A stretch of DNA of 64,000 nt from an uncultured Verrucomicrobiae bacterium (GTDB taxonomy: Bacteria; Verrucomicrobiota; Verrucomicrobiia; Chthoniobacterales; Chthoniobacteraceae), in contig CAWCSW010000020.1 in the NCBI GenBank assembly GCA_963798345.1, positions 8,855 to 72,854 on the forward strand, written 5' to 3'. The notes beneath the pieces were generated by a model. That model was not told the origin of the DNA. It ran no database searches and worked only from the letters and a program-made list of their open reading frames with translations. Of this stretch, positions 5 through 46,388 are shown one piece after another (within the stretch, counting starts at the first letter, position 1; every line of letters starts with the position of its first letter). A program made the position numbers and the translations under genes.

Positions 5-1306
5 TTGTTCGAGTTTGAACACCGGGTGCGGCATCGCGATGGGACGTGGCGTTTGTGTTCCATCCGGGCGGTTCCTTTGCTGGATGCAGCGGGCGAGGTC
101 CGGGAGTGGGTGGGAGTCCATACCGACATCACGGAACGGAAACGGGCGGAGGCGAACTTGCTGGAGGCCAAGCAAGCCGCAGACATGGCCAACCAAAGCA
201 AAGATCGCTTCCTCGCCGTCCTGAGCCACGAACTGCGCACGCCGCTCACGCCCGTGCTCATGGCCATCGGTGCACTGGAACACGATCCCGAGCTTTCGGC
301 CGAAGTGCGCGAAGACCTGGCAATGATGAAGCGCAACATCGAACTGGAGACGAAACTCATCGACGACCTCCTCGACCTCAGCCGCATCACCAGCGGCAAA
401 CTGCCGCTGCACATCGAACCGCTCGATCTGAATGAGGTCGTGCGCCACGTTTGCGGCATCTGCCACCCGCCGCTGCGCGAGCGATCGATTCATTTGGAAA
501 TGATGCTCGACGACGTGACCGGGTTCGTGGCTGCCGACCGTGCGCGGCTCCAGCAGGTGCTCTGGAATATCCTCAAAAACGCGATCAAGTTTACGCCGGG
601 GAAAGGCACCATCCGCGTGACCACGAAGCGCCTCGACGGCGATCGGTGGGAAGTTCGCATCCAGGATAATGGTATCGGCATTCCGGCCGAGGTGCTGCCG
701 CGTATTTTCAATGCCTTCGAGCAGGGCGACGCGAGTGTCACGCGGCAATTCGGTGGACTGGGTCTCGGGCTGGCGATCTCCAAGGCGGTCGTGGACCTGC
801 ATCAAGGATCCATTCTCGCGGAGAGTGCCGGGCCGGGCCAGGGCGCGACCTTTGTGATCGAGCTGCCTGGCGCGGCACCCGCCCCCGCGGCCGATTCCGC
901 CGGGATTGCGCCCGCCGGGGTAGGCAAGGCCCGCCGGCTCCGCCAGCTCCGCGTGCTCCTCGTCGAGGACCACGCCGACACGTCACGCACGCTCGTCCGG
1001 CTGTTACGCCGCCAGGGGTTCGTGGTGGTCAGCGCCGCGGATGTCGCCAGCGCGACCGCGCGGGCGGAGACGGAGGCGTTCGATGTGCTGGTCAGCGATC
1101 TCGGGCTACCGGACGGCAACGGCGACGAAGTGATCCGCCGGGTACGCGCCAGTCAGATCGTGCCGGGGATCGCGATGAGCGGTTACGGCATGGAAGAGGA
1201 CGTGCGCCGCTCCCGCGAGGCCGGTTTCACCGAGCACTTGGTGAAGCCGATCGACGTGTCGCAACTCGTCGCTGCGATCAGACGCGTAACAAATGATCGG
1301 GATTGA
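5..1306 (+). CDS. Hybrid sensor histidine kinase (HisKA-HATPase-REC); 5' end outside window
   Basis: H-box ANQSKDRFLAVLSHELRTPLTPVLM; HATPase N/G boxes (QQVLWNILKNAIKFT, GGLGLGLAISKAVVDLHQGS); C-terminal receiver (LLVEDHADT...DLGLPDGNG...KP). Paralogous to the kinases at 3638 and 5665. Confidence 0.85.
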   Translation: MFEFEHRVRHRDGTWRLCSIRAVPLLDAAGEVREWVGVHTDITERKRAEANLLEAKQAADMANQSKDRFLAVLSHELRTPLTPVLMAIGALEHDPELSAEVREDLAMMKRNIELETKLIDDLLDLSRITSGKLPLHIEPLDLNEVVRHVCGICHPPLRERSIHLEMMLDDVTGFVAADRARLQQVLWNILKNAIKFTPGKGTIRVTTKRLDGDRWEVRIQDNGIGIPAEVLPRIFNAFEQGDASVTRQFGGLGLGLAISKAVVDLHQGSILAESAGPGQGATFVIELPGAAPAPAADSAGIAPAGVGKARRLRQLRVLLVEDHADTSRTLVRLLRRQGFVVVSAADVASATARAETEAFDVLVSDLGLPDGNGDEVIRRVRASQIVPGIAMSGYGMEEDVRRSREAGFTEHLVKPIDVSQLVAAIRRVTNDRD

Positions 1307-1463
1307 GCTCTTTCACGCCCGAAGTTCACCGGCCTTCCGATCGTTCAGCCATCCCCCTCCGCCTCGCAGCGCCACCCCCTTCCCCCACCCCCCAGTAAAC
1401 CTGCGCGTCACGAGCCTCGCCGATGCGATCCGATGAATCGGCCATAAGGACGAAAGCCCCGTC

Positions 1464-1847
1464 ATGCCTGCCTTCGTCGAGGCAATGAAGGCCAAGCCCG
1501 CGACGGTACTACCGCGGGGTGACGATTGGCTCTATGAATTGAAGTTCGATGGCTACCGTTTCCTCGGCGGAAAAGCCGGCGTGGAGGTTCGCATGTGGTC
1601 GCACTCCGAGAAGGACATCACCTCACGTTTCGCGACGGTCGCCAAGGCCCATTCCGCCTTGGTGGACCGCGAACTCGTCGTCGCTGACGAACTAGGCCGA
1701 CCGTCGTTTAACCCATTCAGCATGCGGACGAGTCCACGGATTACTGCGCGTTCCGCTTCGATCTGCTGGAACTCGATGCATGCGACCTGCGACGCGAACA
1801 GCTGGAGGAACGCCGCGCGATGCCCGGCCGATGGTCGGACACATAAT
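1464..1847 (+). pseudogene. ATP-dependent DNA ligase (LigD-type ligase domain) N-terminal remnant, frameshifted and truncated
   Basis: Ligase motif I KFDGYR (LYELKFDGYRFLGG). The reading frame breaks near 1730. The homologous text FRFDLLELDACDLRREQLEERRAMPG continues in another frame to a stop at 1845-1847. Only about 125 of the roughly 300 aa of the domain are present. Confidence 0.55.
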
Positions 1848-2139
1848 GGAGATCCTCTTCTTTTGTGACCACGACCGCCGAAGCTGAAAGAGATTTCATA
1901 AAACGAAAACTCCCCCGCGAGATTTGTGGGTACGGTGCTGGAACAAAAGGCTCATCGAACCGAGTTCGCGCCCCACGGATTGGCTGGTCGCGCGAATTTC
2001 TCACCCCCCATTCATTTCGGAAAAGCGAACTCACGGTGATGCGCTCACGCACCGACTTTGCTGCGATGGGAAAGTTAAAGGCGCAAGTAGGCGTGGCCTG
2101 TAGAGGGCTCCGTTCCAGCGCGCCGCATCCGGCCATCTT

Positions 2140-3657
2140 ATGACTTCTAATTTAGCAACCGAGGCGCTCGCTCCGAAATGTCTCACCGGTATTGAGGGGC
2201 TCGACCGCGTCCTTCTGGGCGGGCTCCCGCGCAACCGCTTCTATCTCGTGCAGGGCGATCCCGGCGTCGGTAAAACGACTCTCGGGCTACAATTCCTCTT
2301 GGAGGGAGTGAAGTCCGGCGAGAAGGGTCTCTACATTACGCTTTCCGAAACGCGGGAAGAATTGTTGGGAGTCGCGCACTCCCACGACTGGTCACTCGAC
2401 GCCCTGGCCATTTTTGAGTTGTCGGCCATTGAGGAAACGCTGTCCACCGATTCGCAAAACACGCTCTTCCATCCCTCGGAGGTTGAGTTGAATCACATCA
2501 CGAAGATTCTCCGCGATAAGGTAAGCGAAGTGCAGCCGGCGCGCATAGTGTTCGACTCGCTTTCCGAGCTGCGGCTGCTCGCGCAGAATCCATTGCGGTA
2601 TCGACGGCAGTTGCTTTCGCTCAAGCAGTTCTTCGTCGGGCGCAACTGCACGGTCCTGGTCATGGACGACCGGACCAGCGAAGCCTCCGACCGGGAGGTA
2701 CAGAGCATCGCGCATGGGGTTTTGAATCTGGCGCGGATGGCTCCCGAATACGGCGCGGAACGCCGCCGACTTTCGGTGGTCAAAGTGCGCGGCGAGGCAT
2801 TCCGCGGCGGTTTTCACGACTACATTATTACCAAAGGTGGTCTGGTCGTTTTCCCGCGTCTGATCGCCTCCGAGCATCGCCGCACCTTTCCGGCACAAGC
2901 AATCTCCAGTGACATCAAGCAACTGGATGCCCTGCTGCTCGGCGGTTTGGATCGGGGCACCAGTACGCTCTTTTCCGGTCCTCCGGGAACCGGGAAATCG
3001 ACGCTGGGAGCCAAGTTCGCGGCGGCGGCCGCGGGCCGTGGTGAAGCCGTTGCCGCCTATACTTTCGACGAGAAAATCGAGACCTACATCCAGCGTGGGG
3101 ATGCGCTCGGCATGGAGTTGAGCAAGCACATCGCGAGCGGCAAGCTGGAGGCGACGCAAATCAATCCCGCGGAACTCTCGCCAGGCGAATTTGCGCATCG
3201 CATCCGCCGCGCCGTGGAAGACCGGGACGTCCGGTTGGTCGTGATCGACAGCTTGAACGGCTACCTCAATGCGATGCCCGAGGAGCGTTTCCTCACCATC
3301 CAGATGCATGAGTTGCTCAGCTATCTGGCGCAACAGGGCGTCGTGACGATTCTCATTCTCGCGCAGCACGGACTGGTCGGGTCGATGCAGTCGCCCGTCG
3401 ATGTCACCTATCTCGCGGATACCGTGCTGATTCTCCGCTATTTCGAGGTCGAGGGCGCGGTGAAGCAGGCCGTTTCGGTAATCAAGAAGCGCAGCGGCGG
3501 CCACGAGCGAACGATTCGGGAATTCAAGATTCAATCCGACGGCGTCCACGTTGGAGAGCCGCTCCGCGAGTTCCATGGCGTGCTCACGGGAGTGCCGACT
3601 TTTCAAGGATCGGCCGAGGCAATTATGAAAGGAAAAGGTGGCAACGGACATTCGTGA
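2140..3657 (+). CDS. kaiC: KaiC-family circadian-clock-like ATPase (two RecA-like P-loop domains)
   Basis: Domain I GIEGLDRVLLGGLPRNRFYLVQGDPGVGKTTLGLQFL. Domain II ISSDIKQLDALLLGGLDRGTSTLFSGPPGTGKSTLGAKFA. KaiC-like C-terminal stretch DTVLILRYFEVEGAVKQAVSVIKKRSGGHERTIREFKI. The stop overlaps the start of the downstream kinase by 20 nt. Confidence 0.8.
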   Translation: MTSNLATEALAPKCLTGIEGLDRVLLGGLPRNRFYLVQGDPGVGKTTLGLQFLLEGVKSGEKGLYITLSETREELLGVAHSHDWSLDALAIFELSAIEETLSTDSQNTLFHPSEVELNHITKILRDKVSEVQPARIVFDSLSELRLLAQNPLRYRRQLLSLKQFFVGRNCTVLVMDDRTSEASDREVQSIAHGVLNLARMAPEYGAERRRLSVVKVRGEAFRGGFHDYIITKGGLVVFPRLIASEHRRTFPAQAISSDIKQLDALLLGGLDRGTSTLFSGPPGTGKSTLGAKFAAAAAGRGEAVAAYTFDEKIETYIQRGDALGMELSKHIASGKLEATQINPAELSPGEFAHRIRRAVEDRDVRLVVIDSLNGYLNAMPEERFLTIQMHELLSYLAQQGVVTILILAQHGLVGSMQSPVDVTYLADTVLILRYFEVEGAVKQAVSVIKKRSGGHERTIREFKIQSDGVHVGEPLREFHGVLTGVPTFQGSAEAIMKGKGGNGHS

Positions 3658-5293
3658 GTCGGGAGACGAGAGCGTCCTCGTCCTGGCACCACTCGGTCGC
3701 GACGCTGAACTTGCGTCCGCCGCTTTGGCCGCGACCGGATTTCAATGCGTGATCTGCGGCGACCTGCAGGAAGTCATGGAAAAGCTCTCCACCCCGCGCG
3801 GCGCGGTGCTGCTCGCCGAGGAGGCGATCACACCCGCCGGACTGGCGCAATTAGCCGCTCTCCTCGGTGCTCAGCCCGCGTGGTCGGACTTGCCCATTAT
3901 CCTTCTCACGAGCAGCGGCAATGTGGCCGAAGCTAATTCCGCTGCGGTGGCACACTTCGGGCAGGACATTAATGTTACGCTGCTGGAGAGACCGCTCCGT
4001 GTCATCACCCTCTGCAGCACGGCGCGCGTGGCGCTGCGCGCCCGGCGTCGCCAATACGAAGTGCGCGCCCTCCTTCGGCAGCGCGAAGAAGTTCTGGCCA
4101 GCGAGCGCGCAGCGAGGTCTGACGCCGAACGCGCGGGCCGGATGAAGGATGAATTTTTGGCCACGCTCAGCCACGAACTGCGGACGCCACTCAATGCCAT
4201 CGTTGGCTGGTGTGCGCTGCTACAGGGCGGCCCGACGGATGATGACGAATTGGCGCAAGGCTTGGAAACGATCGAGCGGAACGCACGGGCGCAGACGCGG
4301 ATCATCGAAGACTTGCTCGATATGAGCCGGATTATTTCCGGGAAAATCCGGCTGGACGTCCGGCCATGCGATCTCGGGGAAATTGTCCAAGCGGCGGTGG
4401 ACACCGTGCGCCCGGCAGCGGAAGCCAAGAGCATCACGTTGCGCGCTGTTCTTGATTCCGAAATCGGCCCGCTATTGGGCGATCCCAATCGACTTCAGCA
4501 GGTCTTTTGGAACCTGCTGACCAATGCCATTAAATTCACGCCCAAAGGCGGCTCGGTGAAGGTCACCCTTCAGCGCGTCCACTCCCAAGCGGAGATCAGC
4601 ATCGCCGATACGGGTCATGGGATTCAGGCCGAATTCTTGCCGTTCGTCTTCGATCGCTTTCGCCAGGCGGATTCTTCCTCGACCCGGCATCATCGCGGAC
4701 TCGGTCTGGGCTTGGCCATTGTCAAGCAATTGGTGGAACTCCACGGAGGAAGTGTGGCGGCTCGGAGCCCAGGGCTCGGGCGGGGCGCGACGTTCATGGT
4801 GGCGCTGCCGGTCTCAGCGTTGCTTGCAAATCCTGACTCCGGCACTTCGGCGCCGACCCATGAGGCAGAATTGGCAGTCTCCTCGGATTGGAAAGCAGAG
4901 GTGCGGCTCAACGACGTGAAAGTGGTCGTCGTGGACGACGAAGTGGACGCCCGCGATGTCGTGCGACGCCTCCTCGAAGGCTGCGAAGCGGACGTGCGGG
5001 TCGCGGGTTCCGCGGCGGAGGCGCTCGGACTTATTCGAGCGCACCGGCCAGACGTGCTGGTCAGCGACATCGGCATGCCGGGCGAAGACGGCTACGCGCT
5101 GATTCGCCTCCTGCGCGCGTTGCCGCCGGACGAAGGCGGCTCTACCCCCGCTATCGCGCTTACGGCATACGCGCGCGTGGAGGACCGCGTACAGGCGCTG
5201 CGTGGGGGCTTTCAAATGCACGCCGTCAAACCCGTCGAGCCAGCCGAATTGGTGGCCATGGTGGCGAGCCTCGCGCGTTCGGCTACCGCCTGA
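3638..5293 (+). CDS. Hybrid histidine kinase with N-terminal pseudo-receiver domain (PsR-HisKA-HATPase-REC)
   Basis: N-terminal roughly 130 aa has receiver-like beta/alpha periodicity (VLVLAPLG..., AVLLAEE, PIILLTSSG) but the phospho-acceptor Asp position reads AEE. Then RMKDEFLATLSHELRTPLNAI, an HATPase domain (GLGLGLAIVKQLVELHGGS), and a true C-terminal REC (VVVVDDEVDARD...VSDIGMPGEDG...KP). Probably translationally coupled to kaiC. Confidence 0.85.
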   Translation: MATDIRESGDESVLVLAPLGRDAELASAALAATGFQCVICGDLQEVMEKLSTPRGAVLLAEEAITPAGLAQLAALLGAQPAWSDLPIILLTSSGNVAEANSAAVAHFGQDINVTLLERPLRVITLCSTARVALRARRRQYEVRALLRQREEVLASERAARSDAERAGRMKDEFLATLSHELRTPLNAIVGWCALLQGGPTDDDELAQGLETIERNARAQTRIIEDLLDMSRIISGKIRLDVRPCDLGEIVQAAVDTVRPAAEAKSITLRAVLDSEIGPLLGDPNRLQQVFWNLLTNAIKFTPKGGSVKVTLQRVHSQAEISIADTGHGIQAEFLPFVFDRFRQADSSSTRHHRGLGLGLAIVKQLVELHGGSVAARSPGLGRGATFMVALPVSALLANPDSGTSAPTHEAELAVSSDWKAEVRLNDVKVVVVDDEVDARDVVRRLLEGCEADVRVAGSAAEALGLIRAHRPDVLVSDIGMPGEDGYALIRLLRALPPDEGGSTPAIALTAYARVEDRVQALRGGFQMHAVKPVEPAELVAMVASLARSATA

Positions 5294-5664
5294 ACAACAA
5301 AATCGGACATCCGTTTCAACCCAGCACAGCAATCTTTCATCGCACCCCGAGTCTCCGATGACCACCACACAACTCGAATTCCCAGTCACGACGACATCGC
5401 AGCTATGGCCCGGAATCTTTGGGAAGAAGAGGGAAGGCTCAAACGCAAGGCTGAGGAGCATTGGCGGCTCGCCGATTCGCCAAGCTCAGCAGCTCGGTGA
5501 GCAGACGAAGTCCCAAGGCGCCGGCGTCGTTTGGAATTGAGATTGGCTGCCGCGTGCTGGGCGGTGGGTGAATGCGGGGTTGGAGAAAGTGATTGCGCCG
5601 CGAAATGCGGCGTTGTGGCATCCCGCGCGGCATTTAGTCTGCGACCGAAATTTCCACGCCGCCC

Positions 5665-8253
5665 TTGACTCTCTCGCTCCTCAATGTCGATCCGCAGCAT
5701 CTTCGCGAGTTTTTTGCCTACGTGGCGGCCGCGCGAAAATGGGCGCTCGTTGATCCCGAGTTGGCGTCGGAGCCGGACATTCGGTGTCTCCTTGCCGCCT
5801 TCCCGCAGTCCTCAGGAGAGGTCTTGGGAGAGCAGGAAGCTCGGAAGCGAGCAGGAGAGGCACTGCGTCAAAGCGAGGCCATGGCGAAGGCGTGCGCCGA
5901 GGAGTTGACCAAGGCCCTGGACGCGCTGGACGAAAGTGAGAAAAAGCTGCGCTGGGCGACGGAAGCGACGGAAGCGGCGGAACTGGCGATCTGGTCGTGG
6001 GACGTCGCCCAGGACTCCGTCATTTGGGAGAATGACCGACCCTACGAATTCTTTGGCATAGACCGCGCTCAGGGACCGGTGAATGCGGCGCGCTTCGTGG
6101 CTGAATTCCTCCACCGCGAGGACGCGCCGGGATTTGAGTCTGCCGCAGCCAATGCGCTGCGCACAGGGGAGCGATTCTTTTTCCTCGGGCGTTTCTACCG
6201 CAAAAGCGGGGAACTGCGCTGGATCGAATTCACCGGACATCCCACGCCCGGTGTGGGCGGAAAATTCATACACATGTTCGGCACCGCGGCCGACGTGACG
6301 GCGCGCCAGTCGCAGCAGCTTGCTGTGGAAGAAAGCGAGGCGCGCCTCCGCCGGGTGTTCGAGTCGAATGTTGTGGGCATGATCAAGTGGAATCTGGACC
6401 GCAGCCTGATCCTCGACGCCAACGAAGAGTTTCTCCGCATGACCGGCTACACGCGCGAAGACGTGGCCGAGGGTCGCTTGAATTTCCGCGCCCTGACCCC
6501 ACCCGAGTGGACGCCACTGAACGAGGACGGCATCCGTCGCATCCGTGAGCAGGGTTTCGCCGCGCCTTACGAGAAGGAATACTTTCGCAAAGACGGGTCG
6601 CGCGTTCCCGTGATCATCGCCGGCACGCGGTTTGACGACGCCCCGTCGGAAGGGATGTCTTTCTTGATCGACATCACCGAACGCAAGCGCGCGGAGGCGG
6701 CGATGCGCCAGAACGCGGCCCTATTTTCCACCCTCATCGAGCAGGCGCCCGTGGGGGTGTATGTGGTGGATGCGCAGTTCCGCCTGCAACAGGTGAACAC
6801 CGTAGCATTGCCCGCTTTCCGGAGCGTCCGTCCGCTGCTCGGGCGCGATTTTGGCGAAGTCATGGACATTCTGTGGGGGCCGGAGGTCGGGGGAGAATTG
6901 GCGGCCGTTTTTCGGCACACGCTGGAGACTGGAGAGCGTTACATTTCCCCGCCATTTTCCGAACAGCGCCAGGATCTCGGCGAGGAGCATGCCTACGAGT
7001 GGGAAACGCAGCGCGTCACTCTGCCCGACGGTCAGCACGGAGTGGTCTGCTATTTTTCCGACGTGACCGAAAGGCACCGGGCCGCCGCCGCCTTGCAGGA
7101 AGCCAAGGACGCCGCGGAAGCGGCCAACCGCAGCAAGGATCGTTTCCTTGCCGTGCTTAGCCACGAGCTGCGCACGCCGCTCACGCCTGTGCTGATGACC
7201 GCGGCGGCGCATCGGATGGACGAAGATCTTCCGCGGGAAATCCGCGACGAATTCGGAATGATCGAGCGCAACATCGCCCTGGAAGCGCGGCTGATTGAAG
7301 ACTTGCTCGATCTCACCCGCATCGTGAATGGCAAGCTCACCGTCCGCGCCGAGCCGTGCGATGCCCACTCCCTGCTCGGCCTCGTGGTGGAGATGGTCCG
7401 CAGCGACGCGCTGGAAAAGCAGATCACCATCCAGCTCGAACTCGCCGCGCAACGCCGTCACCTCACCGGCGATCCGGCGCGCTTGCAGCAGGTGCTTTGG
7501 AATCTGCTGCGCAACGCGGTCAAGTTCACACCCGCCGGTGGGCGCGTCTGCGTGCGGTCGTTCGATAGCGCCGACGCCACCGGATTGGAGAATCAATCGC
7601 GCCTCTGTATTGAGGTGATCGACAACGGGATCGGCTTCGAGCCGGCGGCGGCGGCGCGCATTTTCGAGCCCTTCGAGCAGAGCGGAGCGGGGCAAAGCTT
7701 CGGTGGCCTTGGCCTCGGCCTTGCCATCGCCCGCGCCGTTGTCGAATTGCACCGGGGAGCGATTCATGCCGAGAGTCCCGGTCCCGGCCAGGGCGCCACC
7801 TTCACCGTGGAATTGCCCGGCGAGATCAACTCCCGCGTCGGCGCGGCCACGCGCGGGCACGACTCGGACGACGCGCCCGAGCGCGACACACCGTTCCGGC
7901 TCCTTCTCGTGGAGGATCACGAGCCGACGCTCCAGGTGCTCACGCGGCTGCTCGTGCGGGCCGGACATCAAGTCCTCACGGCGCGAAGCCTCGCCGAGGC
8001 GCACGCGACCGCAGCGAAAGAGACCGTCAATCTCGTGATCTCCGACCTCGGCCTCCCCGACGGCACCGGGATCGAACTCATGCACCACCTCCGCGCGACT
8101 TACGGTCTCCGCGGCATCGCGCTGACTGGCTACGGCGCGTCCGACGATCTGCGTCGCTCGGAGGACGCGGGTTTCGTCGCGCATTTGGTGAAGCCGGTGA
8201 ATATCCACGAGCTTCGGCGAGTGTTGCGAAGTCTCTCAGCGACAAATTCCTGA
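5665..8253 (+). CDS. PAS-domain hybrid histidine kinase (PAS x2-3, HisKA, HATPase, REC)
   Basis: PAS-like segments (WSWDVAQDSVIWEND..., MIKWNLDRSLILDANEEFLRMTGYTREDV...). H-box ANRSKDRFLAVLSHELRTPLTPVLM. HATPase (QQVLWNLLRNAVKFT, GGLGLGLAIARAVVELHRGA). C-terminal REC (LLLVEDHEPT...SDLGLPDGTG...KP). Confidence 0.85.
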   Translation: MTLSLLNVDPQHLREFFAYVAAARKWALVDPELASEPDIRCLLAAFPQSSGEVLGEQEARKRAGEALRQSEAMAKACAEELTKALDALDESEKKLRWATEATEAAELAIWSWDVAQDSVIWENDRPYEFFGIDRAQGPVNAARFVAEFLHREDAPGFESAAANALRTGERFFFLGRFYRKSGELRWIEFTGHPTPGVGGKFIHMFGTAADVTARQSQQLAVEESEARLRRVFESNVVGMIKWNLDRSLILDANEEFLRMTGYTREDVAEGRLNFRALTPPEWTPLNEDGIRRIREQGFAAPYEKEYFRKDGSRVPVIIAGTRFDDAPSEGMSFLIDITERKRAEAAMRQNAALFSTLIEQAPVGVYVVDAQFRLQQVNTVALPAFRSVRPLLGRDFGEVMDILWGPEVGGELAAVFRHTLETGERYISPPFSEQRQDLGEEHAYEWETQRVTLPDGQHGVVCYFSDVTERHRAAAALQEAKDAAEAANRSKDRFLAVLSHELRTPLTPVLMTAAAHRMDEDLPREIRDEFGMIERNIALEARLIEDLLDLTRIVNGKLTVRAEPCDAHSLLGLVVEMVRSDALEKQITIQLELAAQRRHLTGDPARLQQVLWNLLRNAVKFTPAGGRVCVRSFDSADATGLENQSRLCIEVIDNGIGFEPAAAARIFEPFEQSGAGQSFGGLGLGLAIARAVVELHRGAIHAESPGPGQGATFTVELPGEINSRVGAATRGHDSDDAPERDTPFRLLLVEDHEPTLQVLTRLLVRAGHQVLTARSLAEAHATAAKETVNLVISDLGLPDGTGIELMHHLRATYGLRGIALTGYGASDDLRRSEDAGFVAHLVKPVNIHELRRVLRSLSATNS

Positions 8254-8320
8254 TGCGCCCATCGGGAGAGTGGAAGACAAGACGACCGGCGCACGACCAG
8301 CGCGCGATGCGCAGTGAGAC

Positions 8321-9010
8321 ATGAACACCTTCACCCCTTCGCAGCCGATCGCGGAGAATCTCTGGCTCCTTGGCTACCCGCTGAAAATGTTGGGAGCCGA
8401 CTTGCGCCGCAACGTAACACTGATCCGGCTCCGATCGGGAAAACTCGTCATTCATTCCACAGCGCCTTTTTCGCCAGAGGACGTGGCGGCGATTCGCGCG
8501 CTGGGCGAGCCCGGCTGGTTGTTGGATGGAGTTTTACGCCACGACACCTTTGCAAAGGAAGGGCGCGAGGCGTTTCCAGAGATCCCATATCTCGCTCCAG
8601 AGGGTTTCTCGGGAGCGGTGGGATTTCCGACTTTGCCGATCGTGCCCGCCCCCGCCGAATGGGAAGGTGAACTATTCGCGCTGGAAATCCAAGGAGCGCC
8701 CGCCGCCCGCGATACGGCACTTCTCCATGTCTCTTCCCACACCCTGATCCTCACGGAGCTGATCTTCAACTTCGGTCAAGACGAGCCGCTCTGGACGGAG
8801 TTGCTCTTGCGCGTCGCGGTTGGTGGCGAACATCACCCGGGAATGTCCCGACCGTTTAAGGCCGGAGTGAAGAACGAAGAGGCGTTCAGGAGTTCGGTAG
8901 CGACCATTTTGGGCTGGGATTTCGACCGCGTGATCGTCGGTCACGGCGATGTGATCGAAAACGATGGCAAAAAAAAGCTGCGCGCGGCTTTGCAGACGGC
9001 TGGATTTTAG
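8321..9010 (+). CDS. Hypothetical protein, DUF4336-like
   Basis: 229-aa ORF with coding-like codon usage. N-terminal LWLLGYP...RMLGADLRRNVTLIRL and C-terminal VIVGHGDVI resemble DUF4336-type proteins as I recall them. This is a weak, memory-based assignment. Confidence 0.45.
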   Translation: MNTFTPSQPIAENLWLLGYPLKMLGADLRRNVTLIRLRSGKLVIHSTAPFSPEDVAAIRALGEPGWLLDGVLRHDTFAKEGREAFPEIPYLAPEGFSGAVGFPTLPIVPAPAEWEGELFALEIQGAPAARDTALLHVSSHTLILTELIFNFGQDEPLWTELLLRVAVGGEHHPGMSRPFKAGVKNEEAFRSSVATILGWDFDRVIVGHGDVIENDGKKKLRAALQTAGF

Positions 9011-9075
9011 GAAATCGCGGCGAAAGCGAACTAAAACCCATAGGACGCTCGAAACCCCACCAGCACAACCGCTCC

Positions 9076-9900
9076 GTGACAAACGTCGGGAACTTGCCAT
9101 CCTCAACCCAAGACCGTTTTCGGCCGGCGGCGTTGGGCGACAGGTGGACCAAGGTGCGCAACGCGGACCTTCATTCCGTTGAGGCGGGGCGACCGGGTCG
9201 CATTCCCTTTGTGCTAATTCCCGGTCTAGCCATGTCGGGATCCTACTTTCTGCCGCTGGCGCGTTCGCTCGCGGCCAGCGACCCGGTCCAGGTGCTGGAA
9301 TTGCCGGGGTTTGGACGCAGCACGGGGCCCCGGGGTGCTCTCGCGATGCGGGAGCACGCCGCATGGCTCGACGACTGGATGGAGGTGCGCAATATTCAAA
9401 GGTGCCATCTCGTCGGTCACTCGATGGGCTGCCAAGTGACTGCGCACCTCGCGGCAGAGCACGCGGATCGCGTGCGGACCCTCACCCTGATCGGGCCGAC
9501 GGTCGATGCGCACGCTCGTCGGAGAACCACGCAAATCCTCCGACTGTTCCGCGACTTCTCCAAGGAGAGCCTTCCCACTGTATTTCGCGCGCTGGTGGAT
9601 GTCCTCCGGGCTGGCGTCGTCCGGACTTGGCGGACGAGCACCGAAATGCTGGCCGATCCGCTCGAAGCGCAACTCGCCCGGATCACCGCACCAACGCTCC
9701 TCCTCCGCGGTGCGAACGACTCGATCGCGCCAGAGCGTTGGTTGCAAACCGCCGCCTCCTTCCTCGCAGCCGGACACTCAATGACGCTGCCAGTAGGGGC
9801 GCATTGCGTGCAATTTTCCGCCGCCGCGCAAACGGCCGCGGCCATCCTCACGTGGACTAGCCTGCACGAGGAGACGCGGTCTCATGCGCGCGAATCCTGA
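9076..9900 (+). CDS. Alpha/beta-fold hydrolase
   Basis: Nucleophile elbow GHSMG (HLVGHSMGCQV). Typical alpha/beta-hydrolase length and a C-terminal His region. Confidence 0.75.
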   Translation: MTNVGNLPSSTQDRFRPAALGDRWTKVRNADLHSVEAGRPGRIPFVLIPGLAMSGSYFLPLARSLAASDPVQVLELPGFGRSTGPRGALAMREHAAWLDDWMEVRNIQRCHLVGHSMGCQVTAHLAAEHADRVRTLTLIGPTVDAHARRRTTQILRLFRDFSKESLPTVFRALVDVLRAGVVRTWRTSTEMLADPLEAQLARITAPTLLLRGANDSIAPERWLQTAASFLAAGHSMTLPVGAHCVQFSAAAQTAAAILTWTSLHEETRSHARES

Positions 9901-10634: not shown

Positions 10635-10855
10635 TGTGTTTCATAACGTAATCTGAATCGCTCCGACCTCATTTTCGGACGTGCGCTTTAAACAAAAAGA
10701 GAAGCCCCCCTGCTCGAACCCGAGAAGGCATGCCGAGTTTTCCATTACTTCGGGTGCCACAATCCCTACCGCCAGAGATAGCCCCTTTTGCGATTAACAA
10801 CACAACACCCCTAATTCGCCGGGCGGTCACGTCCGGAACGGCGGTGATTATCACC

Positions 10856-11500
10856 ATGTCTAACTCCCCGCTCTCTGAAAACCGAACGCGCATCTTGATC
10901 GCCGAAGATCACGCCAAAACGCGCGAGGCCCTGCGCTCCTTGCTGGAGATTAAAGCTTTTGACGTAACCTCCGTCGCCACCGGCAATGAAGCGCGCGAAG
11001 TTCTCACATCGTTCGACACACCCTGCATTGCTCTTGTCGATTGGGAAATGCCGGGTGCTTCCGGCTTGGATGTCTGCCGGGCCGTCCGTGCTCATAAGTC
11101 CGATCGCTACGTTTACCTTATCGTCATCACGGCACGTGATGGCGAAGAAAGCATTAACCAGGCAATGGCCGCTGGTGCCGACGATTTCATTCCGAAGCCA
11201 TGCGGAGTGTCCGAGCTTCTCGCCCGGGTACGGAACGGCGAGCGGACCGTCGCCTTGCAACGCAATCTCGCGATTCGCATTGCTGAATTGGAGGAAAGCG
11301 CTGAGCGCATGCGTCAACTGAAGCGTCTCCTGCCAATCTGCATGTATTGCAAAAAAATCCGCGATGACTTGGACTACTGGGAGGAGATTGAGGTCTATAT
11401 CCGGGAACACACAGGAACGAATTTTTCCCACGGAATCTGCCCGAGTTGCATGGCGAACGAGATTGGCGAACTGAGCGCTAAGAGGTTACCGGGCACTTAG
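10856..11500 (+). CDS. Response regulator: REC domain plus C-terminal Cys/His-rich (zinc-ribbon-like) domain
   Basis: REC motifs RILIAEDHAK...ALVDWEMPGASGLD...KP. C-terminal LPICMYCKKIRDDLDYWEEIEVYIREHTGTNFSHGICPSCMANE, a four-Cys motif. Start chosen at the internal ATG at 10856. The 3' end overlaps the convergent kinase gene by 15 nt. Confidence 0.75.
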   Translation: MSNSPLSENRTRILIAEDHAKTREALRSLLEIKAFDVTSVATGNEAREVLTSFDTPCIALVDWEMPGASGLDVCRAVRAHKSDRYVYLIVITARDGEESINQAMAAGADDFIPKPCGVSELLARVRNGERTVALQRNLAIRIAELEESAERMRQLKRLLPICMYCKKIRDDLDYWEEIEVYIREHTGTNFSHGICPSCMANEIGELSAKRLPGT

Positions 11501-13267
11501 CCGGTCGATCGTCTCCTTTAGTCGATCAGCGGCGACTGGCTTGACGATATGAGCGTTGAATCCGGCGTCCTTTGTTTGTTCCAAGTCGGACTCCATGCCG
11601 TAACCGGACATGGCAATCGCGGGGATATCGCGGTCCCGCCGGAGCTTGCCCAGCAAGTCCATCCCCGTGCCATCAGGCAGGCCCACATCGCTGAGCAACA
11701 GTTCCGGGTCGAAAGCCGGTGCATACTCGATCGCCTGGGTCATCGTTGCGGCATGCTTCACGACATGGCCCCAGCGGCTGAGTAAACGTTCGAGCGCGTT
11801 GCGGGTATCTTCATGGTCTTCGACGAGGAGGATACGGAGCGTGCGCACCGTGGGCGTGACGGGCAGTGACATGCCCGAAACCTTCGGCGCCGCCGGCGGT
11901 ATAATCGTCGCCAGTTCGATGGTGAATGTCGCCCCGTGATCCTTGCCGGCGCTGAACGCCGTGATGCGGCCGCTGTGCGCTTCGACCAGCCCTTTCGCAA
12001 TGCTCAGGCCCAGACCAACACCACCGAAGCGTCGCATTGTGGAATCTTCGCCCTGCTGAAACGGCTCGAAGATACGGGAGAGCATCTCGGGGTCAATGCC
12101 GATACCGGTGTCCGTGACGTCGATGCGCACCGTTTCCGGCGTGGGATTCACGGTGCGAACGGTGATGCTTCGTTCATTCGGAGTGAATTTCACGGCGTTA
12201 AGGATGAGGTTCCAAAAAATTTGTGCGAGCCGCGCACCATCGCCCTTCACATGACGCTCGGTCGCATCAAGGTGTAAGGCGATTTCCGAGCGCTTCTGAT
12301 TCGCCGCGGAACGGCACATATCTGCGGCGTGCCGAATTGTTTCATGAAGGTCGATGGTGGAAAGATGCACCTCCAGCTTGCCTTTGCTGATTCTGGTGAT
12401 GTCGAGCAGATCATCGACGAGCCGCGCTTCGAGTTCAATGTTTCGGCGAATCAGCGAAAGCGACTCGCGTAGCTCTTGGGGATCGATCTCTGTCGCGTTT
12501 TCCAGATTGCTGGCGGCTGCTAAAGCGGGCGTGAGGGGCGTGCGCAGTTCATGACTGAGCACGGCGAGAAACTGATCCTTTGCGCGATTGGCGGCCTCCG
12601 CGGCCTGCTTCGCGCGCTCCAGCTCACGGGCGTGGACGGTGACTTCCTTGGCCATGTGCGCGAGGTCGTGAGTCCTCTCACCATTGGCAGCTGTGTGGGC
12701 GCCGAGGGCCGCGGCTGTGAAATACGCTGAGGGAGCAGCGTCCGTCGCCTTTTTATAGAGTTCCGCCAGTACAGCGTAGGCTTTCTCCAGTTCGGACTTC
12801 CGTTCCGCGGCAAGGCGTGCCGACTGCAACACCGAGCGGATTTTCGGCACCAGCGGGGGGAGCAAAAGCGCGGTAACCAGCGAGGCCGTTGCCGTAAGCA
12901 ATTTCACCCAGCCGGAGAGCCAGTAGCGAGGATGCGGCGACTGCAGCGTCCAGACTTCCATGAAGTGCGTGGCCCCGCAGGCCACAATGAAGAGCGCGAA
13001 AGCCAGCATCATCCAATGGAACGGCAGCTCCTGCCGCGCTCGGAAGACGAGATAGATCAGCGTCGTCGAGATTGCGACGTAGGAGAATCCGATGACGAGA
13101 TCCGACCAACCATGCAGCCTCATCAGGTCGCGGTTGAACAGGTAGCAATGCGCGTGCGGCATGAACATGTCCGTCCCGGAATCATGAAAGGCGGCCGCAA
13201 CGATGGCCCCTAACGCGAGGGCCACGGCGACCAGGGCTATGACAGACCGAACGCGCGCTTGGTTCAT
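11486..13267 (-). CDS. Hybrid histidine kinase with N-terminal ethylene-binding-domain (ETR1-like) membrane sensor
   Basis: N-terminal TM region TLIYLVFRARQELPFHWMMLAFALFIVACGATHFMEVWTL aligns with Arabidopsis ETR1 [39 protein letters not shown]. That includes the Cu(I)-ligating Cys65/His69 motif (CGATH) and the upstream D and Y positions (WSDLVIGFSYVAIS vs ISDFFIAIAYFSIP). Followed by HisKA (AKDQFLAVLSHELRTPLTPAL), HATPase and a C-terminal REC. Confidence 0.85.
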   Translation of the reverse strand: MNQARVRSVIALVAVALALGAIVAAAFHDSGTDMFMPHAHCYLFNRDLMRLHGWSDLVIGFSYVAISTTLIYLVFRARQELPFHWMMLAFALFIVACGATHFMEVWTLQSPHPRYWLSGWVKLLTATASLVTALLLPPLVPKIRSVLQSARLAAERKSELEKAYAVLAELYKKATDAAPSAYFTAAALGAHTAANGERTHDLAHMAKEVTVHARELERAKQAAEAANRAKDQFLAVLSHELRTPLTPALAAASNLENATEIDPQELRESLSLIRRNIELEARLVDDLLDITRISKGKLEVHLSTIDLHETIRHAADMCRSAANQKRSEIALHLDATERHVKGDGARLAQIFWNLILNAVKFTPNERSITVRTVNPTPETVRIDVTDTGIGIDPEMLSRIFEPFQQGEDSTMRRFGGVGLGLSIAKGLVEAHSGRITAFSAGKDHGATFTIELATIIPPAAPKVSGMSLPVTPTVRTLRILLVEDHEDTRNALERLLSRWGHVVKHAATMTQAIEYAPAFDPELLLSDVGLPDGTGMDLLGKLRRDRDIPAIAMSGYGMESDLEQTKDAGFNAHIVKPVAADRLKETIDRLSAR

Positions 13268-14481: not shown

Positions 14482-15123
14482 ATGCTTTACGAATTTGATG
14501 ATCAATCGAACCCTGCCCCCTCCACGGCAACGACCGTCGATCGTTCCGACGAAGAGCTGATGCAGCGCATTCAAAATCACGACGAAACGGCTCTGGCCAC
14601 GCTCTATCGCCGCCACACTCCGCTCTTGCGGACGATCGCCGCCCGCATCGTCAACAACAATGCTGACGTGGATGACCTGATTCAGGAGATCTTCGTTGAA
14701 ATCTGGAACCGTGCGGGGAGTTACGAAGAGGCCAAGGGCAAGGCGATCGGCTGGATTGTGACGCTGGCCCGCCGCCGCGGGATCGACCGCATGCGCCGGA
14801 ATCAAGCCTACTCGCGAGCCGGGGAACGCCTGCGCGAAAGCGCTGCGGGCGATGCTGAAGCGATGCATCCCGCGACCGATGCGGAGGCGATGAACGGGGA
14901 CACCGCGGAAATCTTCCGACGGATTCTCGATAGCCTCCCCGCCGCCCAACGCGAGGCCATCCATCTCGCCTATTACGCCGGCCTCAGCCAGCGTGACATC
15001 GCCCGCCTCACTGGCATTCCCCTCGGCACCATTAAAACTCGTCTAGAACTTGCCGTGTGCAAAATCCGCGCCGGCATCCTCGCACTTGGCGGCGAGGCGG
15101 AGTGGCGCATTGCGCACGCCTAA
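14482..15123 (+). CDS. ECF-family RNA polymerase sigma factor (sigma-70 regions 2 and 4)
   Basis: Region 2 DLIQEIFVEIWNRAGSYEEAKGKAIGWIVTLARRRGIDRMRR. Region 4 LPAAQREAIHLAYYAGLSQRDIARLTGIPLGTIKTRL. No anti-sigma gene is visible next to it. Confidence 0.8.
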   Translation: MLYEFDDQSNPAPSTATTVDRSDEELMQRIQNHDETALATLYRRHTPLLRTIAARIVNNNADVDDLIQEIFVEIWNRAGSYEEAKGKAIGWIVTLARRRGIDRMRRNQAYSRAGERLRESAAGDAEAMHPATDAEAMNGDTAEIFRRILDSLPAAQREAIHLAYYAGLSQRDIARLTGIPLGTIKTRLELAVCKIRAGILALGGEAEWRIAHA

Positions 15124-15185: not shown

Positions 15186-16688
15186 TTACTGCCCGATCCC
15201 AAACCGCCGCATCTTCGCGTAAAGCGTCGGGCGGTGAATTCCCAAGATTGCCGCGGCTTGCTTTTTGTTGCCCTGCGTCTTGCGCAACGCCGCCAGCACA
15301 GCCTCTTTTTCCACTTCCTCCAAGCTCCCGGTCGGTAGCGGCGGTACTCCCGTGAGCATTGGGGCAGCCAGTTCGGGCATGCGGATTTCTCGGGGCAGGC
15401 ATTTGGCCCCGAGCAGTGGCCCCTCGCACAAGACCAGCGCGTGCTCGATCGCATTTTGCAGTTCCCGGACATTTCCCGGCCAGCCATACACTCGGAGCAT
15501 CTCCAGCGCTTCGGGGTCCAACTGTGGAAGATGCTTGCGGAGCTGGTTGGCAAAGCGGTGGAGGAAAGTATCGACGAGTTTGGGAATGTCTTCGCGACGC
15601 TCCCGCAGCGGTGGTATTTCGATCTCGAACGTTTTCAATCGATAGTAGAGATCCTCCCGCAGCCGACCTTCCCTGACCGCCAGCCCGATCGGACGATTGC
15701 AGGCCGCGATCAGTCGAAAGTCGGCGCGGATATTCTTGGTCGTGCCCAAGGGCCGGAACTCGCGCTCTTGCAGCACGCGCAGAAAACGCGTCTGCAGCTC
15801 CAACGGCATCTCGGTGATCTCGTCCAGAAATAGCGTGCCGCCTCGCGCCTCGGCGAGCATCCCCGGAAAGGCGACGACCGCTCCCGTGAACGCACCCCTG
15901 GCGTAGCCGAAGAGTTCCGCCTCGATCATGTTCGCGGGGAACGCCCCGCAATTCAGTTTGATCATCGGTCCGTCGCCACGCTCGCTATGTCGATGCACCT
16001 CGCCGGCATACACCTCCTTCCCCACGCCGCTTTCGCCGGTCAGCAAAATGTTCGCCTCGCTCGGGGCGATCCGCGCGATGAGTTGCTCGACCTCCCTCAT
16101 CCGCCGACTGATCGCCACCGGGGCGAGTTTTTCCTCAGCCGCGCGCAGCCGCTTCTCCAGCGATTCGTTCGCTGCGGTGAGCGTCTCCGTTTGCCGCACG
16201 AGATCACGTTGCTCCAGTGCCCGCGCGCACAAACTCAGCAATTCCTCAGCCGCATACGGCTTGGATAGAAAATGGAACGCCCCGAGTTTGATCGCCTCGA
16301 TGGCATTTGCGAGCGTGTCGTTGGCCGTCAGAATCATCACCGGCAATGCCGGGGTGTCCGCCTTCAGCCGTCGTAAAACGTCGAGGCCCTCCGCATCGGG
16401 CAGTCCGAGATCGAGCAGTACCAGATCCGGTTTGACCTCCTCGACCTTCTTCCTCCCCAAGGAGGCCGTCGGCCCCACGTGAACCTGATAGCCGTGCCGC
16501 TCCAGAATCGAGGAGAGCGTCGCCTGAATCGTGCGCTCGTCATCGATGACGACGATCTTTTTGCCCGACTCCGTCACTAACGCGGCAGAATCGGTTCCCG
16601 TCGAAGCGTAGTTTCCGTCGGCGGCAGGAAGGGCAATTCTTTCATGTGTGATCTGAGCTTTCATTTTCTCCAGCTCGTACTTCGGCAC
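15186..16688 (-). CDS. Sigma-54-dependent transcriptional activator, NtrC family (REC - AAA+ - HTH)
   Basis: REC (VVIDDERTIQ...LLDLGLPDAEGLD). AAA+ sigma54-interaction domain (ILLTGESGVGKEVYAGEVH, GAFTGA, ELFGY). C-terminal Fis-type HTH (GNKKQAAAILGIHRPTLYAKMRRFGI). Confidence 0.85.
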   Translation of the reverse strand: MPKYELEKMKAQITHERIALPAADGNYASTGTDSAALVTESGKKIVVIDDERTIQATLSSILERHGYQVHVGPTASLGRKKVEEVKPDLVLLDLGLPDAEGLDVLRRLKADTPALPVMILTANDTLANAIEAIKLGAFHFLSKPYAAEELLSLCARALEQRDLVRQTETLTAANESLEKRLRAAEEKLAPVAISRRMREVEQLIARIAPSEANILLTGESGVGKEVYAGEVHRHSERGDGPMIKLNCGAFPANMIEAELFGYARGAFTGAVVAFPGMLAEARGGTLFLDEITEMPLELQTRFLRVLQEREFRPLGTTKNIRADFRLIAACNRPIGLAVREGRLREDLYYRLKTFEIEIPPLRERREDIPKLVDTFLHRFANQLRKHLPQLDPEALEMLRVYGWPGNVRELQNAIEHALVLCEGPLLGAKCLPREIRMPELAAPMLTGVPPLPTGSLEEVEKEAVLAALRKTQGNKKQAAAILGIHRPTLYAKMRRFGIGQ

Positions 16689-16998: not shown

Positions 16999-17906
16999 AT
17001 GCTCAACGAACTCTGGTATCGAAATTCCATCATTTACAGCCTTGATGTCGAAACCTTCATGGATGCCAATCACGATGGGATCGGCGACTTCGAAGGCCTG
17101 AGCCTCTCGCCCAGGCTCTCAAGGCAACACGTGAGGTGCCGCCAGGTGCGCAATGGTGCCACTTTCTCCGTAACCACGATGAGCTCGATCTCGGACGTCT
17201 GACCGAGAAACAGCGGGAGAAGGTCTTTGCGCGCTTCGGCCCGGAGAAGGATATGCAGCTTTACGATCGCGGCATTCGCCGCCGCCTCGCACCGATGCTG
17301 GGCAATCGCCCCCAGCTGGAACTCGCGAACAGCCTCGCCCTTTCGCTACCGGGCACGCCGGTGCTGCGCTACGGCGATGAGATTGGCATGGGCGATGATC
17401 TTGACCTCTCGGAGCGCAATTCCGTCCGCACGCCTATGCAGTGGAGCAACGAAATTAACGGCGGTTTTTCCACCGCGAAGAAAACGGTTCGCCCGGTGAT
17501 CGAGAAGGGCAGCTATGGATTTTCACGGGTGAACGTGGAAGCGCAGCGGCGGGAGCCGGATTCGTTCCTGACCTGGACGGCGGCGATGATCCGCCTGCGC
17601 AAGGAATGTCCCGAGATCGGAATGGGCGCCTGGAAAATGGTGGAGACGAAGTCGAAGTCGATCCTCGCTTTGCAATACGAGTGGAGGGGCAGTTCCGTGG
17701 TGATCATGCACAATTTCGCTTCGTCTCCGCAAACGGTCCACATCCGGCCGGAAGGAGGTCGCGAGCACGGCCTCGTGGATCTGATTGAGCGCCAGGAGAG
17801 CGCGGCTGACGGCAGGGGCGAACACGAAGTTGCGCTCGACGCGCCCGGCTACCGCTGGTTCCGCGTCGGGCCGCTAACGCAAAAGCTCGGCCGCAAGCGG
17901 GCGTGA
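16999..17906 (+). pseudogene. treS: Trehalose synthase / GH13 alpha-amylase-family gene remnant with a roughly 300-codon internal deletion
   Basis: N-terminal 35 aa MLNELWYRNSIIYSLDVETFMDANHDGIGDFEGL (GH13/TreS N-terminus) join, in a different frame, to a TreS-like C-terminal half (WCHFLRNHDELDLG...LSLPGTPVLRYGDEIGMGDDLDLSERNSVRTPMQWS...). The catalytic core is missing. The junction lies at a 6-bp inverted repeat at 17100..17118. Confidence 0.65.
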
Positions 17907-18170: not shown

Positions 18171-18404
18171 ATGCCAAAGTGCGAAGTTTGTGGAAACGAA
18201 TACGACAAAGCCTTCGAGGTCATCCTCGCGGGAAAGAGCCACATCTTCGACAGCTTTGAATGCGCGATCCACGCGCTTGCGCCGAAGTGCCCGTCTTGCG
18301 GCTGCCGCATCATCGGCCACGGCGTCGAGGAGGCTGGGGAAATCTTCTGCTGCGTCCACTGCGCACGCTCCGATGGGCGCACGAAATTGAAGGATCGCGC
18401 ATGA
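18171..18404 (+). CDS. Small Cys-rich putative metal-binding protein (two CxxCG motifs)
   Basis: MPKCEVCGNEYDKAFEV...FECAIHALAPKCPSCGCRIIGHGVEEAGEIFCCVHCA, with 10 Cys in 77 aa. Start taken at the internal ATG at 18171. The stop (TGA 18402-18404) overlaps the ATG of the next gene (ATGA). Confidence 0.5.
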   Translation: MPKCEVCGNEYDKAFEVILAGKSHIFDSFECAIHALAPKCPSCGCRIIGHGVEEAGEIFCCVHCARSDGRTKLKDRA

Positions 18405-18868
18405 CCCCCGCGCTGGTGCTCATCGCGCTGCTCACCGGGCGCGCGGTGAAGGTGCCAAGCATGGCGGGCGAACTCGTCTCCGGCGTGCTGGAAGAAAGCG
18501 CTATCGCGCTCGGGCTCTCCACGTTTTTCCTCGGCGTAATCGTCCTCGCCGTGGTCGGTAACGCTGCAGAGTATGTGGCCGCGGTATATTTCGCGCGGAA
18601 AAACCAGATGGGCCTCGTGATGAGCATCACTGTCGGCTCCACCATCCAGGTTGCGCTGCTACTGGCGCCGCTCCTCGTCATCGTCTCGCACTTTTTGGGA
18701 AAGCCGATGAATCTCGTCTTTGAAAACCCGCTGGAACTCGTCGCCATCGCCGGCGTCACCTTCGCCGTGAATGCCATCGCCGAGGACGGCGAGACGACGT
18801 GGTTTGAAGGGGTGCTGCTGCTCGCCGTCTATGTCGTTCTCGGCATGGCGTTTCTTTTGGTGAAATAG
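18401..18868 (+). CDS. Half-size Ca2+/cation antiporter (CaCA family, single alpha-repeat), possibly truncated
   Basis: 155 aa with about 5 TM segments and one CaCA alpha-repeat signature (GNAAEYVAAV). Full CaCA/ChaA proteins carry two such halves. No N-terminal half is present in any frame upstream. Confidence 0.6.
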   Translation: MTPALVLIALLTGRAVKVPSMAGELVSGVLEESAIALGLSTFFLGVIVLAVVGNAAEYVAAVYFARKNQMGLVMSITVGSTIQVALLLAPLLVIVSHFLGKPMNLVFENPLELVAIAGVTFAVNAIAEDGETTWFEGVLLLAVYVVLGMAFLLVK

Positions 18869-43819: not shown

Positions 43820-44049
43820 CGGAAAGGAGCGCGTTGTTGGGTTTAACAATCGTATTGAAGGTCCAAGCGTTGAAATCTGGCGAGATCCCCGGCCGTCCAT
43901 TGATCTCGTCGCTGCTCAAATGCCGCCACTCGGTTTGGGATGGCCGACGATGACGCAAAGGTGGCGCAGGCACCTGCCAGTTGGCGAGGGAACCGCCGCT
44001 GACAAAAAATCTCCTGACGGGGCGAAAATCTTCAAGGCGGTCGTGAGGT

Positions 44050-46245: not shown

Positions 46246-46388
46246 GCGGTCGCGGCCGGGCGGCTTTAGTCGGAGGAACGCCGAAAGGATTGTGTAATCC
46301 ATGCGGCCGAAAAAAACTTCGCCCTTCCGACCATTGACACCGGAGGGGGAAGCCCCAGAACTGGGTTTCGCCGTTTAAAAACCCAACT

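Follow-up and report, generated by a model that had tools for sequence, protein, structure and literature searches.

Near one end of a 64-kb stretch of DNA (the window; 64,000 nucleotides of contig CAWCSW010000020.1, assembly GCA_963798345.1) from an uncultured Verrucomicrobiae bacterium of the family Chthoniobacteraceae, a kaiC homolog (positions 2140..3657, + strand) is followed directly by the gene of a hybrid histidine kinase (3638..5293, +). The kaiC product is 505 amino acids (aa) long and has two RecA-like domains, CI (approximately aa 16-240) and CII (approximately aa 248-488). The kinase, of 551 aa, comprises a predicted N-terminal pseudo-receiver, a coiled coil, a HisKA domain, a HATPase_c domain, and a C-terminal receiver. 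An earlier interpretation of this locus from its letters alone (the sequence-only reading) had proposed a non-cyanobacterial KaiC module for timing or stress signaling, with a dedicated output kinase and with neither kaiA nor kaiB. Its reading-frame coordinates proved correct. As set out below, profiles, synteny, and the literature on homologs support a KaiA- and KaiB-free signaling module of this kind, although the module has already been described and is less novel than was then assumed.

The kaiC product is a full double-domain KaiC, as first read. The Pfam KaiC domain PF06745 matches it twice (E-value 1.4e-76), and its residues 8-488 align with solved KaiC structures, the best of which is 8zn5 (7.5e-56); in the same structure-chain alignments, the KaiC proteins of Rhodobacter sphaeroides and Synechococcus elongatus score approximately 1e-41 to 1e-43. 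Both P-loops are intact, with the Walker A motifs GDPGVGKT (aa 39) and GPPGTGKS (aa 280). The NCBIfam model PRK09302 (KaiC) gives 254.7 bits against an equivalog cut-off of 408, and TIGR02655 (circadian KaiC) gives 144.7 bits against a cut-off of 546.25. Judged by these scores, both of which fall short, the protein is a member of the KaiC family and not an ortholog of clock KaiC.

The residues known from clock KaiC were located through a HMMER alignment to 8wve_A (S. elongatus numbering), and their conservation was counted over an alignment of 49 family members. The S431-T432 phosphosite pair of S. elongatus corresponds to T423-Y424 in the window KaiC (codons 3406..3411, +). The first of these positions is Ser in 45 members and Thr in 4, and the second is Tyr in all 49. 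The T426 position is occupied by S418 and is Thr or Ser in 45/49. At the E318/E319 position, D310/E311 is invariant; at the E77/E78 position the window protein has S69/E70, and the family has Ser or Ala followed by an invariant Glu. K45 and T46 of the CI Walker A motif are likewise invariant. The window KaiC lacks the hallmarks of circadian KaiC, namely the S431/T432 pair and the paired catalytic glutamates.

In the kinase, Pfam assigns aa 169-234 to HisKA (with the H-box FLATLSHELRTPL at aa 173), aa 281-392 to HATPase_c, and aa 429-542 to Response_reg; read from the sequence, this C-terminal receiver has the usual DD, D, T, and K-P residues. Pfam matches nothing in residues 1-165. An AlphaFold2 model of this N-terminal region, built from an alignment of 66 homologs, has a mean predicted local distance difference test (pLDDT) score of 90.1 and follows the strand-helix order of CheY, with a (βα)5 core at aa 11-121 (3668..4000, +). 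In a Foldseek search of the PDB, all of the best matches were receivers (NtrX, DctD, VanR, KdpE, and PhoB; probability 1.0). Profile alignment with hhalign to CheY places A17, P18, and A60 at the positions of CheY D12, D13, and D57, such that all three acidic active-site residues are lost, while T87 is kept as T91 and K109-P110 becomes R118-P119. The receiver fold and the loss of the acidic residues together make the N-terminal domain, as modeled, a true pseudo-receiver, which agrees with the earlier description of a receiver-like N-terminus without the phospho-acceptor aspartate.

The pseudo-receiver family has a sharp signature across the 66 homologs, consisting of ILAPxGRDA, AEEAL, QPAWSDLP, LT, GNVTLLERP, and ALRARRRQYExR. 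Q79, R118, and P119 are invariant, and W82, S83, D84, R136, R138, Q139, Y140, and R143 are nearly so. The nearly invariant ALRARRRQYExR lies on a long α5 helix (aa 122-164; 4001..4129, +), which continues to the end of the modeled construct. Because α5 ends only a few residues before HisKA begins (aa 169), a signal from the pseudo-receiver could plausibly reach HisKA through the coiled coil. Against 1.84 billion representative proteins, the pseudo-receiver profile matches at least 2,797 clusters (50% identity) at E ≤ 1e-30, and in these the match is always N-terminal; weaker matches include generic HisKA proteins, the profile having been extended into the HisKA domain.

Three other identities for this N-terminus were tried and set aside. 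A SasA-like domain with the thioredoxin fold of KaiB does not agree with the receiver fold found in the model and in the fold search, and a KaiB probe gave no match. A PAS domain is ruled out by the predicted structure and the fold search. The pseudo-receiver also appears to be no recent duplicate of the kinase's own C-terminal receiver, since the alignment of its profile with that receiver is not significant.

The two genes overlap by 20 nucleotides (nt; 3638..3657, +), just as had been noted, with the GTG start of the kinase gene (3638) inside the 3' end of kaiC and the kaiC stop codon at 3655..3657. This overlap, together with a Shine-Dalgarno-like GAAAGGAAAAG upstream of the GTG, suggests from the sequence that the two genes are translationally coupled. 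Homologous pairs also abut or overlap, by 17 nt on plasmid pAt of Agrobacterium fabrum C58 and by 4 nt on Sphingobium pSRL1. A promoter and terminator scan of 1200..9200 gave no signal above shuffled background.

The order of the two genes is strictly conserved. The window KaiC protein, searched against one genome per species, returned 49 loci in six phyla, most of them in Acidobacteriota and the rest in Abditibacteriota, Bdellovibrionota, Planctomycetota, Myxococcota, and Verrucomicrobiota. In every locus with enough downstream sequence (48/48), a hidden Markov model of the pseudo-receiver matches the open reading frame (ORF) directly 3' of kaiC on the same strand, and the two genes usually abut or overlap; the adjacency of kaiC and kinase seen in the window is, then, found in its relatives as well. 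The kinases in these loci consist of the pseudo-receiver, zero to three PAS domains, HisKA, HATPase, and a receiver. The same order is present in three metagenome contigs that were found from the kinase side. In one of these (L002), the pseudo-receiver is encoded by a separate 180-aa gene (8001..8543) between kaiC and a 386-aa HisKA-HATPase-receiver gene (8543..9703); the split may be natural, in which case it would support an adaptor role, or it may be a frameshift. All-against-all ORF clustering of 50 loci revealed no third conserved gene (response regulator, Hpt, CsrA, or exosortase), KaiC and the kinase alone being conserved.

The pair is also found in Proteobacteria. On a contig of Pseudomonas sp. 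P7548, a KaiC 53% identical to that of the window, with PVDITYLAD (a TY pair) and "SE" in CI, is followed directly by the same pseudo-receiver. Among annotated plasmid records, 141 were matched by the pseudo-receiver and 252 by KaiC. Among the matches listed for both queries, approximately 27 of 28 records, all from alphaproteobacterial and betaproteobacterial plasmids, have the pseudo-receiver at most a few tens of nt 3' of kaiC; examples are A. fabrum C58 pAt, Sphingobium indicum pSRL1, and a B. japonicum plasmid. The pair on pAt is ATU_RS26320/ATU_RS26315 (locus L056, 2476..6013), which are annotated as "ATPase domain-containing protein" and "response regulator," respectively. Some records call the KaiC homolog "gvpD," which looks like a mis-annotation.

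The cyanobacterial clock requires KaiA and KaiB. A tblastn search of the 64-kb window with the S. elongatus KaiA and KaiB sequences returned chance-level matches alone (best E-value 0.5), in keeping with the earlier statement that neither gene is present, and the KaiB probe found no match in 52 related loci.

Gene pairs of this type were described in 2011, when three gene contexts of kaiC were distinguished (De Luca et al., 2011; PMC3164672). In the second of these (the "dark-blue" group), KaiC carries an SY, TY, or SF phosphosite pair, kaiC is always followed by a specific kinase, termed Nt_HK, and the genome contains no kaiB; co-transcription of kaiC and the kinase gene was demonstrated by reverse-transcription PCR. 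The Nt_HK kinases share a conserved N-terminal domain, RtaNt, which is 19% identical to a receiver domain, and the authors proposed a family of SasA-like, KaiC-interacting kinases (PMC3164672). The example from Ramlibacter tataouinensis, Rta_04330/Rta_04340, resembles the window pair in its SY/TY pair, its order of kaiC and then kinase, its receiver-similar N-terminal domain, and, as far as the 64-kb window shows, its lack of kaiB; its host, however, is a betaproteobacterium, whereas that of the window pair is Verrucomicrobia-like. That study stressed a KaiB/SasA-like similarity of the kinase N-terminus (10-16% identity), whereas the domain in the window has a predicted receiver fold rather than a thioredoxin-like one.

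In Pseudomonas, no KaiB was found in 1,255 genomes, and KaiC falls into three groups, of which group I has a TY/SY pair and adjoining kinases (Terrettaz et al., 2022; bioRxiv 10.1101/2022.01.26.477890). Pseudomonas KaiC binds its kinase in two-hybrid and co-immunoprecipitation experiments, strongly so in the two-hybrid assay for P. protegens group I, and its phosphorylation rises with culture age and in stationary phase; this phosphorylation reportedly does not follow a 24-h cycle. Mutants have stress and metabolic phenotypes (sulfur uptake and carbon-source use), which are known for Pseudomonas alone (bioRxiv 10.1101/2022.01.26.477890). The group I system of P. protegens CHA0 is like the window pair in its TY/SY pair, its lack of KaiB (for the window pair, within the 64 kb searched), and its adjacent (hybrid) histidine kinase, which in that strain binds KaiC, and the TY pair of the window KaiC fits both Pseudomonas group I and the SY/TY group of De Luca et al. 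In contrast, a conserved third gene is a feature of Pseudomonas group I, and none is seen among the loci related to the window. By its sequence, then, the window pair fits in every feature tested the KaiB-independent "kaiC plus Nt_HK" module known since 2011 and carried by thousands of soil bacteria. The known module is thereby extended to a Chthoniobacteraceae-like (Verrucomicrobiota) genome, and it appears as very widespread and strictly two-gene. What is new is modest in scope: the N-terminus of the KaiC-linked kinase, labeled KaiB/SasA-like or PAS in the literature, is firmly assigned by its modeled fold to the pseudo-receivers, which replaces both labels and provides a sharp, mutable signature.

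Like the KaiC-coupled kinase, SasA has an N-terminal non-catalytic domain that is thought to dock on KaiC and to turn the state of KaiC into phosphotransfer. The N-terminus of SasA, however, has a KaiB-like thioredoxin fold, whereas that of the KaiC-coupled kinase is predicted to be a receiver; moreover, SasA lacks a hybrid architecture and its gene is not linked to kaiC, whereas the window kinase is a hybrid whose gene overlaps kaiC. The parallel that the sequence-only reading drew to the pseudo-receivers of KaiA and CikA holds in that these, too, are receiver folds without the phospho-acceptor aspartate in a Kai-protein setting. Beyond this, the likeness is a loose analogy. In CikA the pseudo-receiver lies at the C-terminus, binds KaiB as well as quinones, and represses autophosphorylation, and in KaiA it binds quinones (PMC12632262); direct contact of a pseudo-receiver with KaiC is not described in that article. 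The window domain has no detectable specific sequence relationship to either, and its best folds are ordinary receivers of the NtrX, DctD, and PhoB type.

The locus is probably best explained by a mechanism of five steps, of which the first alone has direct support. (i) The overlapping genes would yield the partner kinase together with KaiC, a member of the SY/TY subfamily that is presumably hexameric, with ATPase and autokinase activity. (ii) KaiC would dock on the N-terminal pseudo-receiver of the kinase. (iii) Docking would be relayed through α5 and the coiled coil to the dimerization helix of HisKA (DHp), switching the kinase between autokinase and phosphatase activity; a change in the coiled coil is proposed here because α5 runs almost directly into the HisKA helix. 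(iv) The phosphoryl group would pass to the C-terminal receiver of the kinase and on to putative Hpt or response-regulator partners. (v) The slow variable would be the state of KaiC, in bound nucleotide and in phosphorylation (T423/Y424 and S418), and it would report stress, energy state, or culture age and not drive a self-sustained clock. This explanation builds on the gene order, the domain folds, the loss of the phospho-acceptor, the family signatures, and the strict synteny observed here, and by analogy on the co-transcription, KaiC-kinase binding, growth-phase-dependent KaiC phosphorylation, and stress phenotypes that others have reported for homologs. The pseudo-receiver, with its signature, offers a definite starting point for mapping how KaiC proteins outside the cyanobacteria communicate with two-component systems.

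Several points weigh against this mechanism. Both the placement of docking on the pseudo-receiver and the direction in which docking affects kinase activity are inferred, and the same is true of any timing role for the module. In CI, the window KaiC has Ser-Glu where S. elongatus has the catalytic pair E77-E78, and the ATPase activity of CI may differ between the two proteins. The Ramlibacter and P. protegens systems are assigned to the same family by shared signatures and by the one Pseudomonas contig. The one domain mapping in print covers aa 1-138 in PP_3835 of P. putida, a "PAS" region of a group III system that may not be homologous to the pseudo-receiver. Finally, no Hpt domain or cognate response regulator was identified among those window ORFs that were scanned.

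A further proposal is put forward tentatively. In a KaiB-free hourglass, the pseudo-receiver could stand in for the thioredoxin fold of KaiB and SasA as a module dedicated to reading KaiC. The conserved residues of its pseudo-active site (R21/D22, E61/E62, T91, and E117/R118) and a basal patch (QPAWSD, and RRRQY on α5) would sense the state of KaiC, while the invariant Tyr at the T432 position could be genuinely phosphorylated, and the resulting Ser/Thr-Tyr phospho-code would be unlike the cyanobacterial one. If this were true, a KaiC-reading pseudo-receiver with at least 2,800 sequence clusters would be the commonest bacterial wiring of KaiC to gene regulation.

It is rather unlikely that the domain serves instead as an autoinhibitory or dimerization element in cis, like those of ShkA and CikA, with KaiC acting on the DHp or CA domain or on the C-terminal receiver, or being itself a target of the pathway. 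The pseudo-receivers of ShkA and CikA do inhibit autophosphorylation in cis (PMC12632262), and the best folds for the window domain include receivers of the DctD and NtrC1 type, in which the α5 coiled coil is an element of dimerization and repression. Some members of the family, moreover, have one to three PAS domains between the pseudo-receiver and HisKA, such that the helical continuity is not universal. On the other hand, the pseudo-receiver is the sole feature separating KaiC-linked from ordinary hybrid kinases, it occurs with kaiC in every locus, and one contig encodes it on its own, as a 180-aa gene that separates kaiC from the kinase core. Its co-occurrence with kaiC and its presence as a separate gene are better accommodated by an adaptor for KaiC than by a purely internal regulator.

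It is very improbable that the pair forms the core of a genuine oscillator, circadian or hourglass, that draws on an unlinked kaiB at another place in the genome and has the kinase acting as SasA. The KaiC is of full length, has both P-loops, and carries phosphorylatable residues at the S431 and T426 positions, and the search for kaiB covered 64 kb of the source genome. Against an oscillator stand the lack of kaiB in the window and in the 52 related loci, its reported absence from whole genomes of this kaiC class (PMC3164672) and from the 1,255 Pseudomonas genomes, scores below both circadian equivalog cut-offs (254.7 vs. 408 and 144.7 vs. 546), the invariant Tyr in place of T432, and a phosphorylation of Pseudomonas KaiC that reportedly tracks culture age and not a 24-h cycle (bioRxiv 10.1101/2022.01.26.477890). 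The KaiB-independent module with its pseudo-receiver kinase remains the preferred reading.

RadA/Sms proteins combine one RecA domain with a zinc finger and a Lon-like domain. That the ATPase is a DNA-repair protein of the RecA/RadA type, adjacent to the kinase by coincidence, is effectively refuted: although KaiC belongs to the RecA superfamily, weak RadA, RadB, and DnaB matches occur, and a remnant of a ligD-like gene lies upstream (intact in the closest relative), the ligase is a neighbor in that relative alone while the kinase is present in all loci, and the KaiC alignment spans both domains. Whether the ATPase would group with RadA/Sms had been posed beforehand as a question to settle, and it sides with KaiC (254.7 vs. 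70.3 bits); the RadA model TIGR00416, with a cut-off of 403, matches the P-loop region alone.

The region upstream of kaiC (1464..2139, +) consists of the ligase remnant (1464..1868), in which the NCBIfam domain of the ATP-dependent ligase of non-homologous end joining is matched at positions 3-88 of 302 alone, and then a non-coding stretch with ORF 1865..2143. The closest relative is a metagenome-assembled genome of Chthoniobacteraceae (locus L046), whose KaiC is 94% identical and whose DNA is approximately 85% identical. Upstream of its kaiC, L046 has an intact ATP-dependent DNA ligase (Pfam A_M and A_C domains) and one more ORF. Comparison of window positions 1411..1819 with L046 3617..5677 shows that the window is shorter by approximately 1.6 kb; the stretch gone from the window comprises most of the ligase and an ORF of 391 aa, of no assigned family, just upstream of kaiC. 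This comparison indicates that ORF 1865..2143, which has no family match in Pfam or NCBIfam, is left-over sequence at the end of the deleted region, next to the truncated ligD. As a candidate kaiB it was accordingly rejected, and it had already been judged not to be KaiB-like.

The sequence-only reading also placed paralogous hybrid kinases on both sides of the module. Such kinases are indeed present, but they are not members of it; by sequence comparison, they are lineage-specific neighbors outside the conserved unit. Downstream lies a kinase of 862 aa with three PAS domains (Pfam) at 5665..8253 (+), and upstream, at 5..1306 (+), the 3' part of a PAS hybrid kinase gene is cut by the window edge, with its PAS domain truncated N-terminally (Pfam). 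The latter shares 86% DNA identity with L046 1615-2915, which falls within an ORF of at least 969 aa, and is conserved as a neighbor in L046 alone. Most related loci have no second kinase equivalent to 5665..8253 downstream of the module. A fourth hybrid histidine kinase at 11486..13267 (-) has an N-terminal, ethylene-receptor-like (ETR1_N) membrane domain. These three kinases are 46-47% identical to one another (47% between 5665..8253 and 5..1306) and only 37-40% identical to the KaiC-coupled kinase (37% for 5665..8253). The claim of one H-box common to the KaiC-coupled kinase and its two neighbors stands for 5..1306 and 5665..8253, and extends to 11486..13267, all of which have FLAVLSHELRTPL; it fails for the KaiC-coupled kinase, whose FLATLSHELRTPL differs by one residue. 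The motif FLAVLSHELRTPL is in any case generic for HisKA. The surrounding region is dense in signaling genes, with a 256-aa receiver-domain gene at 10730..11500 (+) that converges on 11486..13267 (-) and overlaps it at the 3' end, an extracytoplasmic function (ECF) sigma factor at 14482..15123, and an NtrC-type sigma-54 activator at 15186..16688 (-).

Elsewhere in the window, Rfam and tRNA scans gave no matches. A series of genes at 38282..47054 (+) encodes an 1,845-aa FG-GAP/DUF11 repeat protein, a 731-aa protein whose C-terminal domain is a P-loop ATPase (AAA_31/CbiA) and which may be a polysaccharide tyrosine kinase, and a PEP-CTERM protein. Genes for exopolysaccharide (EPS) sortase systems occur near group I kaiC in Pseudomonas (Terrettaz et al., 2022; bioRxiv 10.1101/2022.01.26.477890); the FG-GAP and PEP-CTERM genes of the window, by contrast, are 35-40 kb from kaiC. 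An alpha-amylase fragment (17136..17906, +; profile positions 318-442 alone) and a Na/Ca exchanger fragment (18260..18868, +) adjoin a glycogen-debranching enzyme (20349..22376, -) and an alpha-amylase/CBM48 protein (22373..24328, -). The DNA polymerase III alpha ORF (36159..38132, -) has PHP, NTPase, and finger domains but ends at 657 aa, approximately half the usual length, and probably marks another frameshift or a breakpoint. Upstream of rplQ (48436..48999), rpoA (47329..48399, +) is broken into at least five ORFs that lie in different frames (47329..47679, 47707..47925, 47795..48043, 48065..48373, and 48256..48399, all +). Because an essential gene carries several frameshifts, these point to indel errors in the assembly rather than to a pseudogene, and short or truncated ORFs of the window should be read with such errors in mind.

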